Below are positions 1,587-29,108 of a stretch of 30,645 nucleotides of DNA, piece by piece (the stretch's first letter is position 1; the number at the start of each line of letters is the position of its first letter). The DNA comes from Candidatus Falkowbacteria bacterium CG23_combo_of_CG06-09_8_20_14_all_49_15. Its GTDB lineage: Bacteria > Patescibacteriota > Patescibacteriia > Patescibacteriales > UM-FILTER-48-10. The stretch spans positions 1 to 30,645 of the forward strand of contig PCSD01000094.1 in the NCBI GenBank assembly GCA_002771615.1, read 5' to 3'. Made by a program: the position numbers and the translations under genes. The notes under the pieces are model-generated. The model had not been told where the DNA came from. It searched no databases and was given only the letters and a program-made list of their open reading frames with translations.

Positions 1587-1717
1587 TGAAAAAAAGTATT
1601 TATTTTTGTAAATAAAAAAAGATAAAACAAAATTTACCAATAATAATTCTTTATTAGCTGATATTTATCAAGAATTGATTATTATTAGAACTTGGCTTTG
1701 ATTTTATGAATAAAAGA

Positions 1718-1746
1718 ATTATATATTTATATTACAAAAAAGTCAA
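1718..1746 (-). promoter_or_regulatory. sigma70-type promoter for infA-rpmJ-rpsM-rpsK
   Basis: TTGACT (1746-1741), 17 nt, TATAAT (1723-1718) in AT-rich intergenic DNA. Confidence 0.8.
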
Positions 1747-1809
1747 GAAAATAATGAAAAAAAATATTTAGATATAATTTGTTTAATTATAAAGAAAAAA
1801 TTAATATAA

Positions 1810-3675
1810 TTAATTCAAAACCGCTTTCAGTCGGCGGATGCCGGCTGAAGAGCTTTCTTCTTTTATTATTTTAAACACTCCTAATTGTCCGGTCTGTACG
1901 ATGTGCGGACCGCCGCATATTTCTTTGGACGCGGATATAATCTCGTTGCCAATGGAATAAACTTTCACTTTGTCTCCGTAACGAGAAGCGAAAACGCCCA
2001 TCGCGCCCGTTGCGCGAGCGTTTTCCAGTGTCATCTCTTCGCATTTTACCGGCAAATCGGCTTTTATCCAGCCATTCACCAGATCCTCAACTTGTTTGAT
2101 TTGTTCGGGGGACATTTTTTCCGGATGCGAAAAATCAAAACGCAATCTTTCGGTGGTGATATTACTGCCTTTCTGCAGAACGTGCTGTCCCAATACCTGG
2201 CGCAAGGCGGCAAGGGTCAAATGAGCGGCGGTATGGAGTTTGGTGGTCATTTCGCTGTGGTCAGCCAAGCCACCTTTGAATTTTCCCGCCGCGGCGCTTC
2301 GGGATAACAGCTGATGCTCCCGGAATTTTTGCCTGAAACCTTCCTCATCAACAGACAGACCTTTTTCCGCGGCCAATTCGGTCGTGATTTCCAAAGGAAA
2401 GCCGTAAGATTGAAAAAGATTGAAAGCCGCTTGCCCGCTGACGCGTTCAGTCCCTGATAATTTGGAAAATTCCGTTAAGCCGCGGGCTAATGTGCGGGAA
2501 AATTTTTCCTCTTCGGCGGCCAGGATCTGGCCAGTGTCCGACGCTTGCTGATTGATATAGTCATAAGAATTTTCATAGATTTTTCCGACCAAAGGAGTGA
2601 GAGACGAAAGCCACAATTTTTTTTGTATGCCCAGAACGCGCCCATAGCGCAAAGCGCGCCGGATCAAACGCCGGACGATATAACCTTGGTCCAGGTTGCT
2701 CGGTTTAACTCCCAACGGATCAGATAAAATAAAAACCGCCGCTTTCAGATGGTCAACAATGATTTCAAAAGGCAATCTATTCTCTTGATATTTCCGGCCG
2801 GATAAATCTTCCACGGCCTGCGTCAACGGCCAGAACAAATCCGTGGCAAAAACATTGTCCAAATCTTGGGCCGCCATCGCCAGCCGTTCCAAGCCGCCCC
2901 CGAAATCAACGTTTTTTTGGCGCAAGGGCGCGAAGCCATCGGCGGTTTTAATAAATTCAATAAAAACGCTGTTGCCAATTTCCAAGAAGCGCCCGCAATC
3001 GCAATTCGGATGGCAGGGCTTGTCGCGCCAGCGAGAATTTTCGTGCTTTTTCCGGTCCGCGCCCAAATCATAAAAGACTTCGCTATCCGGTCCGCCAATC
3101 TCACCGACCGGCATCTTATCCGGAGCGCCGGAGCGGGACCACCAGTTTTTTTCTTCGCCGTAAAAAAAGATCCGGCCCTCGTCCAAATTGATGGGCGAAG
3201 AATAATCAAGGACTTTCGGTGCTAAGCCGGCTTGCCGAAAAAGCTCCTGCCAGATTTCCCTGGCTGTCTCATCACGCTCCACGCCGATGGATTCATTGCC
3301 GCGAAAAACCGTAACATAAAGCCGGCGCGGATCCAAACCGATAATTTCCGTTAAAAATTGCCAAAGCCAAGAAATCTGCTCTTTTTTGAAATAGTCGCCC
3401 AATGACCAATTCCCCAGCATCTCAAAAAAAGTGTTATGACGGCTATCGCCAACCTCATTAATATCGCCGGCGCGGAAACAAAGCTGGCTGTTGGCCAGAC
3501 GGACGCCGGCCGGATGTTTTTCGCCCATTAAATAAGGGACCAAGGGCTGCATACCGGAACTCGTGAACAAAGTTGACGGGTCATTTTCCGGAAGCAATGA
3601 AGCGCTGGGCAAAACCGTGTGTCCCTGTCTTTGGAAAAAATCAAGATAAGCTTGCCTGATTTCTTGCGCGCGCAT
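1810..3675 (-). CDS. alaS: Alanine--tRNA ligase, short form (621 aa, no C-Ala domain)
   Basis: SAS L.PENDPSTLFTSSGMQP, HNTFFEMLGNWSLGDYFK, LEIGNSVF, DFGGGLERL; editing motifs HTAAH and EICGGPH; ends at SAGIRRLKA. Confidence 0.96.
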   Translation of the reverse strand: MRAQEIRQAYLDFFQRQGHTVLPSASLLPENDPSTLFTSSGMQPLVPYLMGEKHPAGVRLANSQLCFRAGDINEVGDSRHNTFFEMLGNWSLGDYFKKEQISWLWQFLTEIIGLDPRRLYVTVFRGNESIGVERDETAREIWQELFRQAGLAPKVLDYSSPINLDEGRIFFYGEEKNWWSRSGAPDKMPVGEIGGPDSEVFYDLGADRKKHENSRWRDKPCHPNCDCGRFLEIGNSVFIEFIKTADGFAPLRQKNVDFGGGLERLAMAAQDLDNVFATDLFWPLTQAVEDLSGRKYQENRLPFEIIVDHLKAAVFILSDPLGVKPSNLDQGYIVRRLIRRALRYGRVLGIQKKLWLSSLTPLVGKIYENSYDYINQQASDTGQILAAEEEKFSRTLARGLTEFSKLSGTERVSGQAAFNLFQSYGFPLEITTELAAEKGLSVDEEGFRQKFREHQLLSRSAAAGKFKGGLADHSEMTTKLHTAAHLTLAALRQVLGQHVLQKGSNITTERLRFDFSHPEKMSPEQIKQVEDLVNGWIKADLPVKCEEMTLENARATGAMGVFASRYGDKVKVYSIGNEIISASKEICGGPHIVQTGQLGVFKIIKEESSSAGIRRLKAVLN

Positions 3676-10459: not shown

Positions 10460-10530
10460 CTGGGAGACCTGGATTCGAACCAGGATTATCAGGGCCAGAA
10501 CCTGACGTCCTACCATTAGACGATCTCCCA
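10460..10530 (-). tRNA. tRNA-Gln(CUG), CCA not encoded
   Basis: TGGGAGA/TCTCCCA acceptor stem with U1-A72 and G73, D-arm GTCTAATGGTAGGAC, anticodon arm TCAGG-TTCTGGC-CCTGA, T-arm CCTGG-TTCGAAT-CCAGG. Confidence 0.96.
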
Positions 10531-27622: not shown

Positions 27623-28054
27623 TCAAATATCCAGATTGCCGAGATTTTCCGCGATCTCCGCGCTGTTTTTCTCTGTCCCGGTCTTATATTTCCCCCAATT
27701 ATCCTCGTCCCAAATTTCCAAACGGTTATAAAGCCCGGCGACGATGACTTTCTTTTTTAAACCGGCAAAGTGGCGAAGATATTCCGGAAGATTGATCCGA
27801 CCTTGGCTATCAAAGTCAACTTCCGCGGCGCCGCTGAGCATAAAACGGGCAAAAGCCCTTGATTTTGACTGGCCGATTGGTAAGTTGGAAAGCTTTTCCG
27901 CCAGAGCGGCCCACTGCTTTTTCGGATAAACGATCAGACAATTATCCAAGCCCTTGGTCGCGACCGCCCCTTCTTTCAATAAAACACGAAACTTGGCCGG
28001 AATCGCCATCCGTCCTTTTTCGTCTAAGCTATGCTTGTATTCACCGATAAACAT
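27623..28054 (-). CDS. mraZ: Transcriptional regulator MraZ
   Basis: MFIGEYKHSLDEKGRMAIPAKFR, TKGLDNCL, DSQGRI, GLYNRLEIWD; 143 aa from ATG 28054. Confidence 0.98.
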   Translation of the reverse strand: MFIGEYKHSLDEKGRMAIPAKFRVLLKEGAVATKGLDNCLIVYPKKQWAALAEKLSNLPIGQSKSRAFARFMLSGAAEVDFDSQGRINLPEYLRHFAGLKKKVIVAGLYNRLEIWDEDNWGKYKTGTEKNSAEIAENLGNLDI

Positions 28055-28161
28055 GCGGCCCAATGCTATTAAACGGAAATTTTAATGCTTAAAAGAATAT
28101 GTAAAACAATAATTAATGGAATTTATTTTTGTTTTTGTTTGTCTTTTTTTGATTTTTATAT

Positions 28162-28455
28162 TTATCGTTTAAGGCCGATAAGGAGGCCGGTCAATCTGTT
28201 TGTGGCGATTGAACCAGACCCCTTCTTTGTCTTAAAACCGCTTCGGATTGATTTTGCTGGCCCGAAGCTTTCCAGCCAAGCATGTGTTTTTGTTTTTCGG
28301 CCGGCGTTAATTGTCTTGAACCGTCCGGAAGACTCTTTTTTATTTTTGTTTGCTTTGCCGTTTATTTTTGTTTTAGGCAGACAAGGAGGTCGGCCATAAA
28401 GACCAAACCCCTTCTTTGCCTTAAACGCGCTTGCTAAAGGCGCGCTGATCCCCAT
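28162..28455 (-). CDS. Doubtful 97-aa Lys-rich ORF spanning the structured leader
   Basis: ATG with A-rich upstream context, but low complexity, and the homologous 3' arms of the repeat are read in different frames. Confidence 0.2.
   Translation of the reverse strand: MGISAPLASAFKAKKGFGLYGRPPCLPKTKINGKANKNKKESSGRFKTINAGRKTKTHAWLESFGPAKSIRSGFKTKKGSGSIATNRLTGLLIGLKR
28168..28432 (-). ncRNA. Candidate structured leader RNA with two copies of one stem-loop motif (28432-28372 and 28243-28168)
   Basis: 27/31 identity between 5' arms; stem AAGGGGUYUGGU/RCCGRCCUCCUU with a U-A to C-G compensatory change; A-rich linkers; no match to RNA families I recognise. Confidence 0.6.
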
Positions 28456-28487
28456 GCTATTTTATTTGGTAAGGCGTAAAATGAACT

Positions 28488-28514
28488 TCACCATATTTCA
28501 CCACTCATCACCAT
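28488..28514 (-). promoter_or_regulatory. MraZ operator (three direct repeats, 10-bp period)
   Basis: ATGGTGAtga-GTGGTGAaat-ATGGTGA just downstream of the -10; same architecture as known triple MraZ boxes. Confidence 0.8.
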
Positions 28515-28523
28515 TATGATTTT

Positions 28524-28552
28524 ATTATATGCCACTGGTGGCCCTATGTCAA
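28524..28552 (-). promoter_or_regulatory. Consensus sigma70 promoter of the dcw operon
   Basis: TTGACA (28552-28547), 17 nt, TATAAT (28529-28524). Confidence 0.9.
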
Positions 28553-28594
28553 CATTTTCCAGTAAAATTTAATTTATTTAATATTAAAGACAAA

Positions 28595-28630
28595 AATAAA
28601 AAAAATTCGGCCTATGCACAGGCCGAATTT
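28595..28630 (-). terminator. Intrinsic terminator after tsaB, insulating the dcw promoter
   Basis: Perfect 11-bp stem AAATTCGGCCT-gtgcat-AGGCCGAATTT followed by a T run. Confidence 0.85.
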
Positions 28631-28697
28631 CGTAAAAAAATATTTATCAATTATTCTAACACGTTTTTTTCAACATTCCGTCCACAAGTTAGAAAGT

Positions 28698-29108
28698 TTA
28701 CAGGAGTTTTTTCTTCTTGGTAATGCGGGGCGGACAACGGTACTCGGGCAAAATCACCTTAAAGCCGTTTTCCCCGACTTCGGCCGGATTGGCAAAATTG
28801 GGATCATTTAAACCTCCCCAAATGAATAAATTGCATTTCCAGCCATATGCCAAGGCATTGGCCGTGGCCGCCACAATCCTTTGGGTGGTATAACTTTCTC
28901 CCCGCGGATTAGCCAAAACCGCGTCAAGCGCGGTCTTTTCTAGGCCGCTTTGCTTGAGCAAGCGGTCTAATCCGGACAGAATAGCTTCCCCGTGGTCCAC
29001 CGCCGGATCTAAAATCGTTTGCGCGCAAATTTCCCCCCGGACGCGCAAAGCCAGATAAATGGCATCCTTTTTAGCTCCATCAATGAGAAGCTGGAATGTT
29101 TTCCGCAT
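28698..29108 (-). CDS. tsaB: Short, divergent TsaB-like protein (t6A biosynthesis)
   Basis: L.ID, H.E.IL..LD.LL, LDAV, G.SYT..RI..ATANALAY pattern; 136 aa, lacks the usual C-terminal half. Confidence 0.7.
   Translation of the reverse strand: MRKTFQLLIDGAKKDAIYLALRVRGEICAQTILDPAVDHGEAILSGLDRLLKQSGLEKTALDAVLANPRGESYTTQRIVAATANALAYGWKCNLFIWGGLNDPNFANPAEVGENGFKVILPEYRCPPRITKKKKLL

Follow-up and report, generated by a model that had tools for sequence, protein, structure and literature searches.

In Candidatus Falkowbacteria bacterium CG23_combo_of_CG06-09_8_20_14_all_49_15, the putative promoter and operator boxes of the division and cell wall (dcw) operon lie ~460 nt upstream of the ATG (28054) of its first gene, mraZ. 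What is so long a leader for? The DNA analysed, hereafter the window, spans 30,645 nt of contig PCSD01000094.1 (GenBank assembly GCA_002771615.1). The original prediction, made from the letters alone, held that this leader contains two copies of one RNA hairpin controlling the operon. We found the hairpin to be present, conserved, structured, oriented on the mraZ-sense strand and linked exclusively to mraZ. We consider it highly probable that the hairpin is a functional RNA element located in cis in the dcw leader, and that it represents a new RNA family.

The two copies are homologous, as had been claimed: their 31-nt 5' arms are identical at 27 of 31 positions and are spaced 189 nt apart. 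There are exactly two matches to the 24-nt core UUUAAGRCAAAGAAGGGGUYUGGU in the window (28425-28402 and 28236-28213, minus strand), with 0 expected from 100 shuffles, and none elsewhere in the 1.07-Mb genome. The two-tier stem proposed for each copy agrees with the predicted folds, which reach -29.1 kcal/mol for copy 1 (z -4.07) and -24.6 kcal/mol for copy 2 (z -2.47); a covariance model of the hairpin (described below) scores them at 50.1 and 51.6 bits, respectively. Compensatory differences between the copies (U-A to C-G and U.G to U-A) are indeed present, as are a G.U pair and a U/C mismatch kept in both. The apical parts differ by 14 nt, and the 3' arms are read in different frames by a 97-codon open reading frame (ORF) that spans both hairpins. 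The tandem arrangement, on the other hand, is not the defining state that the original prediction took it for: two copies occur in just 9 of the ~70 genomes examined (this genome and 8 others), and a single copy is the norm. A sister genus shares the two-unit leader layout, and the duplication therefore predates this genome.

To establish the distribution of the hairpin, 316 genomes of the same order were searched with its core as a pattern (<=2 mismatches). The pattern matched 96 of these genomes, while the reversed pattern, run as a control, gave few matches. Seventy-three pattern-found loci were fetched, and 70 hairpin instances among them were judged not to be due to chance; weaker pattern matches with no mraZ nearby were dismissed as chance. 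The mraZ gene lies 3' of the hairpin on the same strand in 68 of the 70 instances, with 69-553 nt between pattern start and ATG. It was undetected on the fetched DNA for two instances (L094 and L097), and the L094 DNA stops 166 nt past the hairpin. The relatives carrying the element include Candidatus Falkowbacteria and Parcubacteria group bacteria. When 151 evenly sampled genomes of the order were scanned with the covariance model, derived from an unguided MAFFT alignment (A2; 64 sequences, 19 pairs), 62 of them (about 40%), from 16 of 26 families, gave a hairpin hit. At the extremes, three families carry it throughout (18/18, 5/5 and 4/4 genomes) and four others not at all (0/19, 0/18, 0/11 and 0/9). 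Some 147 genomes from other orders of the class gave no real hit with the model; the single match outside the order was a low-complexity false positive that does not lie at mraZ. A further 11 diverged instances, beyond the reach of the pattern, were found by the model only, and all 11 are located upstream of mraZ. Each genome has one hairpin locus. A dispersed repeat of the repetitive extragenic palindrome or miniature inverted-repeat transposon kind was considered and rejected: relatives hold 1-2 copies, all at mraZ, and the present genome a single locus.

The structure of the hairpin is supported by covariation. In alignment A2, 91.3% of cells form standard pairs and 13 of the 19 pairs show changes on both sides. 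None of 500 shuffles reached any of five measures used, and sliding the partner strand left 33-54% of cells paired. The result was the same for an alignment of 76 matches made with the covariance model, which has 75 distinct rows and includes one antisense match. Covariation is most pronounced in helix P3, with arm pairs such as UCUGAU/AUCAGA, UUUGAU/AUCAAA, CUUGAU/AUCAAG and UCUCAU/AUGAGA. Helix P2 is nearly fixed across the 64 sequences (A-U 64/64; G-C 64/64; G-C or G.U 64/64; G.U 64/64; G-C 63/64). Here, the near-invariant purine strand AAGAAGGGG pairs with CUYCU via a fixed G.U wobble, G20.U65, seen in 64/64 sequences; additional G.U pairs are common. No variation occurs at P2 positions where pairing would tolerate it, and the adjoining internal loop is fixed on its 5' strand and variable on its 3' strand. 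Pairing between the purine strand, (AAG)(AAG)(GGG), and the pyrimidine strand, (CUY)(CUY)(NU), is feasible in either of two registers offset by 3 nt, which pair 100% and 92% of cells. A kink-turn reading of the internal loop was rejected, as GA/GA occurs in just about half of the members and the register misfits.

The covariance model scores the sense strand at 50-75 bits and the antisense strand at ~30 bits or less. Both the low antisense scores and the G.U pairs, which would turn into A.C on the opposite strand, show that selection acts on the mraZ-sense RNA rather than on duplex DNA. The covarying pairs, the G.U-rich helix and the sense-strand preference thus bear out the selection on RNA that had been suggested.

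The hairpin does not stand alone. What had been described as a leader RNA element is conserved, but the hairpin is the best-conserved module of a longer, modular leader rather than the whole of it. The recurrent order of modules in the 68 upstream regions is promoter, three GTGGnGAA boxes, an A-rich run (of the AAAAUAAAAACAAAAA type), a loop-conserved hairpin, a second A-rich run, often a GCAUGGGGAUGC block, an H-type pseudoknot, a short A/U linker and finally the hairpin (window coordinates in Table 1). The loop-conserved hairpin keeps a loop of 12-13 nt (CAAGAYAAU..., or CAAGAYAAUnnnC) on varying stems (GCCGGC, GUUAGC, GUUGGC and others). Its conserved block is found in most relatives, where by inspection the stems differ but remain complementary, and such a conserved large loop suggests a loop-receptor or protein contact. 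The pseudoknot of the window scores 30.7, whereas its shuffles reach 15.3 at most. Its topology (S1 GGCN/NGCC, S2 variable) was recognised in 26 loci, whose arm pairs, complementary throughout, comprise 22 distinct ones for S2 and 18 for S1; these counts come from a direct parse with shuffle controls, which favours pairing by construction and is weaker evidence than the hairpin covariation. The MAFFT alignment of the pseudoknot was too ragged for pair counting. Plain hairpins take its place in some families.

The GCAUGGGGAUGC block is kept at the nucleotide level in 38 of 68 loci, irrespective of frame; it could fold into a stem of 4 bp around a GGGG loop, and it contains a TGGGG that resembles the MraZ boxes. 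The window has the loop-conserved module and the pseudoknot 5' of copy 2, and the GGGG block and a small hairpin 5' of copy 1. Some families (L074, L080-L082, L088, L093 and others) have further blocks 3' of the hairpin, namely CAUGCUUGUCGUG and a CCCCAUGCGCAGAU...AUCUGCGUUUGUGG hairpin; the CAUGCUUGGCUGG at the start of the window pseudoknot (28271-28283) looks akin to these downstream blocks.

Table 1 Features of the mraZ leader and its surroundings, in window coordinates.
Feature	Position	Strand	Details
Intrinsic terminator of upstream gene (28698-29108)	28602..28631	-	13-bp stem followed by T-run
Pmra-type promoter	28524..28552	-	TTGACA (-35, 28552-28547), 17-nt spacer, TATAAT (-10, 28529-28524)
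Three MraZ-type operator boxes	28487..28514	-	GGTGA cores starting at 28512, 28502 and 28492; exact 10-nt period
GCAUGGGGAU block (GCAUGGGGAUGC type, GGGG block)	28448..28457	-	AUG 28455 opens the 97-codon ORF
97-codon ORF	28162..28455	-	spans both hairpins; judged no gene
Short GC hairpin	28427..28445	-	between GGGG block and copy 1; predicted fold
Hairpin copy 1	28370..28426	-	P1 UUUAAGGC/GCCUAAA; purine-rich internal loop; P2 AAGGGG/CUCCUU with G.U pair; P3 UUGGUC/GGCCGA
Loop-conserved module	28298..28328	-	conserved block UCAAGACAAU at 28319-28310; in relatives GCCAAGAUAAU..CGC in large loop
H-type pseudoknot	28240..28276	-	S1 28276-28272/28260-28256; S2 28268-28261/28247-28240
Hairpin copy 2	28168..28236	-	P1 UUUAAG/CUUAAA; P2 AAGGGG/CUCCUU; P3 CUGGU/ACCGG; apical stem longer
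Spacer from copy 2 to mraZ	28055..28167	-	A-rich, G-poor; no Shine-Dalgarno sequence, no terminator
mraZ (Pfam MraZ)	27623..28054	-	start taken from relatives

The terminator of the upstream gene marks off the mraZ operon as a separate transcription unit. Its promoter, which with the MraZ boxes had been placed ~460 nt upstream of mraZ, was recovered in full: the hexamers match the sigma-70 consensus at 12/12 positions, and three GGTGA boxes sit just 3' of the -10 hexamer. The transcription start site (TSS) would accordingly be expected near 28517. Relatives have the same promoter, also upstream of the hairpin, and keep the boxes as GTGGnGAA x3, hairpin-less families included; by their likeness to published MraZ operators, the boxes are probably MraZ operators. 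Hairpin-less families thus retain promoter and boxes, but their leaders are short (35-110 nt). To judge from the ATGTTYATCGG with which mraZ begins in all relatives, the gene most likely starts at ATG 28054, and not at TTG 28063 of the longest ORF. Downstream of it lie rsmH (Pfam Methyltransf_5, MraW family), an ftsL-sized, ftsL-like ORF, ftsI (a class-B penicillin-binding protein) and a Mur ligase gene. No terminator-like site with a clear T-run was seen inside the operon on the minus strand before 21566-21545. The mraZ coding sequence itself holds a third purine run, GAAAGAAGGGG, at 27967-27977 (codons ..LKEG..), in the same polarity as the hairpin 5' arms; it could in principle pair with the hairpin 3' arms.

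No riboswitch-type expression platform is visible in the leader. No terminator-like site was found in it, and an intrinsic terminator or attenuator, that is a GC-rich hairpin followed by a U-tract, was rejected, neither hairpin preceding a U-tract but A-rich sequence instead. Searches of this genome, which is 96.5% complete, yielded no Rho, CsrA or Hfq. Transcription attenuation at this leader is unlikely, because there is no terminator in leader or operon and none of these three proteins was found. The genome does encode RNase III, RNase J and RNase Y; a phyletic link between hairpin and RNase III was discarded, as RNase III is universal in the order. Use of Shine-Dalgarno (SD) sequences is rare, with GGAG or GAGG at -18..-5 in 5% of 898 long ORFs compared to 3% at a control position, even though the 16S rRNA 3' end (GAUCACCUCCUUUCU / CACCUCCUUUCU) keeps the canonical CCUCCU tail. 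No SD was seen at the mraZ start in any lineage examined. In so SD-poor a genome, initiation should therefore depend on an open start region. Between hairpin foot and ATG there are 8-30 nt in 17 loci and <10 nt in three loci of the diverged set; copy 2 is separated from the ATG by 113 nt, and gaps elsewhere reach ~460 nt. In L036, a 23S_rRNA_IVP-family ORF (1600-1965, plus strand; four-helix-bundle type; Pfam PF05635, E 1e-10) lies between hairpin and mraZ, so that in such genomes the leader hairpin precedes a different first gene. The long-gap loci L037, L020 and L066 probably resemble L036, the one locus in which the Pfam match was checked.

Locus DNA occurs in groundwater and aquifer metagenomes, and no RNA dataset was listed as containing it. 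One oligo-dT soil metatranscriptome library contains a lone contig of 153 nt, 95-99% alike to 28219-28370, the stretch that separates the two hairpins, at a depth of ~4; this contig may represent DNA carry-over and was not used as evidence of expression. A 17-mer pattern scan of 596 Gb of contigs was put aside, as most of the listed stretches correspond to the number expected by chance.

Does the hairpin belong to a known RNA family? Searches against Rfam 15 with cmscan, which the original prediction had called for, gave no match over the hairpins, either in the window (at the gathering threshold and at E <=10) or in six relatives (E <=1). Two sub-threshold matches were rejected: CrcZ overlaps an A-rich spacer only, and L20_leader (28592-28724) corresponds to the upstream gene's terminator. 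The sole match at the gathering threshold in the window is a tRNA gene (10460-10530, minus strand). The nearest system by context is the mraW RNA motif (RF01746), a candidate cis-regulatory structured RNA listed for Actinomycetales whose status as a switch was left open (Weinberg et al. 2010, PMC2864571). Like the present hairpin, it is restricted to one lineage; its name comes from a gene of the same operon, mraW being rsmH, the second gene downstream here, so that the two share a context only. In contrast, our element occurs in the phylum Patescibacteria, upstream of mraZ and behind the MraZ boxes, and RF01746 gave no hit in the leader (E <=10) or in the six relatives. The hairpin is thus not a member of RF01746. 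Full-text literature searches returned no description of a mraZ leader RNA in Patescibacteria, and the hairpin is probably an orphan cis-regulatory leader RNA of an undescribed family.

How might such an RNA act? We tentatively favour the view that a macromolecule acting in trans, most probably a protein or else the 30S subunit, docks on the hairpin in a sequence-specific manner and so sets the translation or stability of the dcw mRNA. The near-invariance of P2 and the one-sided conservation of the internal loop were counted as support for specific recognition. A mraZ-rsmH-ftsL-ftsI-mur transcript would start at the MraZ-controlled promoter and include the hairpin, and its leader folds into modules parted by A-rich linkers, as the comparison of loci shows. 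The P2 helix with its almost invariant purine strand would then be the docking site for the protein or the 30S subunit. Where the hairpin foot abuts the SD-less ATG, occupancy could set translation initiation; where it is located farther upstream, as in the window, occupancy could set the stability of the dcw mRNA or its processing by RNase Y, J or III. A post-transcriptional layer would thereby be added to MraZ repression. Because the hairpin occurs at this operon only, an operon-encoded or growth-linked RNA-binding protein would be the natural suspect, and RsmH, the operon's only known RNA-binding product, may be considered as candidate binder. Of the ligand- or protein-binding element proposed originally, the ligand switch finds no favour in the leader (no terminator, Rho or SD, a variable gap to the ATG, and loop conservation on one strand), whereas binding of a protein or ribosome is plausible.

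There is precedent for such an arrangement in the autoregulatory protein-binding operators of mRNAs, including ribosomal-protein leaders, the thrS operator and autoregulation of the ermC methyltransferase. As in these, the hairpin is found at one locus per genome and confined to one operon, has invariant helical bases and a fixed wobble, is often near the start codon with a pseudoknot nearby, and belongs to an operon encoding an rRNA-binding enzyme, RsmH. It differs from them in that its binder is postulated and its distance to the start codon varies. Likeness to rRNA is limited to the 3' arm, and there to a similarity with the 16S 3' tail that half of the members show. The target of RsmH, 16S helix 44 around C1402, was also considered as a model for mimicry; comparison by eye, the only means used, revealed no likeness.

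Several observations weigh against a docking site. The binding partner is itself part of the proposal, and the TSS, the processing sites and transcription through the leader are deduced from the DNA. Large families of the same order (0/19, 0/18, 0/11 and 0/9) have short leaders with no hairpin, which is therefore dispensable. The gap to mraZ spans <10 to ~460 nt and whole ORFs may intervene, so that one mechanism may not fit all lineages. A pseudoknot beside the hairpin suits a small-molecule aptamer equally well. Furthermore, most loci were gathered with a 5'-arm pattern, which inflates the apparent invariance of that arm: it is partly an ascertainment effect, and the 11 model-only members deviate from it at several positions. 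The AAGGG/CUYCU core nonetheless persists in the ten aligned model-only hits shown, with an A-U in place of the last G-C pair among them, and the invariance of the 3' arm is no artefact of the search.

Several rival explanations were weighed against these data. The 97-codon ORF could be a real small protein, the repeats reflecting an internal gene duplication: the frame is open for 97 codons from a conserved AUG, and both 5' arms are read in one frame (189 = 63 x 3). However, a Pfam search of the 97-aa ORF returned no family, the ORF opened by the corresponding AUG is 7 codons long in the closest relative, and in relatives generally it runs for 4-43 codons with varied ends, sharing only the initial MG (usually MGM). 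Hairpin lengths among the 68 loci differ by non-multiples of 3, most loci have no in-frame ATG, and the conserved arms pair as RNA with covariation. Conservation of the 97-aa protein, named at the outset as a result that would argue against a leader RNA, was thus not borne out in frame, length or peptide, and we give the small protein practically no chance. Ribosomes starting at the conserved AUG of the GCAUGGGGAUG block might instead run into the hairpin and open it, thereby gating the translation of mraZ. Of 68 loci, 38 have the AUG block, which frequently follows an A-rich stretch, and in 20 of those the ORF stops inside the hairpin; yet for 30 of the 68 hairpins no such block was found in the 120 nt upstream. 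It is kept as nucleotides, occurs in each of the three frames with respect to the hairpin, and opens peptides of 4-97 codons that are unconserved beyond the MG and in many loci end well before the hairpin. Such upstream-ORF coupling is very unlikely. Very unlikely, too, is an element acting at the DNA level, as auxiliary MraZ operator or cruciform, or a processive antitermination RNA acting on RNA polymerase. GGGG-containing blocks do recall the GTGGGGAA boxes, and leader RNAs that modify RNA polymerase work independently of distance, but the hairpin lacks the GTGG core of the boxes, the opposite strand would turn G.U into A.C and scores far lower, the operon has no terminator to override, Rho was not found, and the rrn boxA GCACUUUAACAA has no clear copy in the leader.

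Among the other rivals, a small-molecule riboswitch would use the pseudoknot and hairpin, doubled here, as aptamer for a cell-wall precursor, second messenger or cofactor that switches dcw expression. A conserved, structured and covarying domain with an H-type pseudoknot is present, and the two P2 registers (92% versus 100% paired) could support a switch. Tandem riboswitches, for example those for glycine, likewise place two homologous units in one leader, as seen in this window and 8 other genomes, and the lack of an Rfam match would make this a new class. Unlike in those systems, a single copy is normal here and the two copies have different upstream modules. Moreover, no expression platform is visible (no terminator, Rho not found, no SD to sequester, a variable ATG gap), conserved unpaired bases occur on one strand only, plain hairpins replace the pseudoknot in some families, and each genome has one locus. 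We therefore regard a riboswitch as rather unlikely, and the broader notion that the leader represents a new class of sensory RNA, be it a riboswitch or an RNA that senses the availability of ribosomes or of the 16S tail, is doubtful too. A structural cassette with no dedicated regulator, in which RNase Y cuts the A-rich linkers and the hairpin caps the new 5' end against RNase J or serves as RNase III site, would draw on enzymes that are all present, on hairpins of -23 to -38 kcal/mol set between A-rich single strands, and on an effect independent of ATG distance. It leaves the near-invariant run of ~18 nt and the fixed G.U pair unexplained, and RNase III, being universal in the order, does not track the hairpin; this makes such a cassette unlikely. 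Finally, the 5' arm could be an SD-like site for the 16S tail, masked by the 3' arm (ACCUCCUU in copy 1) as an anti-SD mimic, the whole serving as a STAB-SD-like stabiliser or standby site. The 16S rRNA ends in GAUCACCUCCUUUCU, copy 1 carries ACCUCCUU and many relatives GAUCAGCCUCCU, and the 5' arm would pair with the tail at -10.2 kcal/mol. Polypurine and SD-like 5' stabilisers are on record for B. subtilis hbs (PMC5737220) and mycobacterial katG (PMC2358910), with cryIIIA STAB-SD cited therein; like the present arm, they are purine-rich, complementary to the 16S 3' end, far from the start codon and found in an organism with RNase J. In contrast to them, the purine run here is predicted to be paired, enclosed by a stable helix at a distance of 45-450 nt from the ATG. 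CUUCUC stands in place of CCUCCU in about half of the members (30/64), and the wobble position is always G and never the A of canonical GGAGG, which would bind the tail better. As ~1950 genomic sites bind the tail as well or better, its affinity is unexceptional, which counts against SD mimicry; ribosome interplay of this kind is improbable.

Whichever partner it has, the hairpin bears on division and wall synthesis, processes whose control in Patescibacteria (the candidate phyla radiation) is essentially unknown; these organisms carry few regulators. With an RNA family supported by covariation and tied to mraZ exclusively, the best conserved of the division operons would come under a second level of control, exerted post-transcriptionally. 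The known cis-regulatory RNAs of bacteria are joined by a family not described before, and its presence across 16 families and absence from the most reduced ones provides a handle for experiments. If the sensory reading were true, the pseudoknot and the register-shifting helix would couple the division and wall operon to metabolite or ribosome status in ultra-small cells with very few protein regulators. Should the hairpin indeed sense a ligand or the state of the ribosome, it would link growth state to division in organisms that are not yet culturable on their own.

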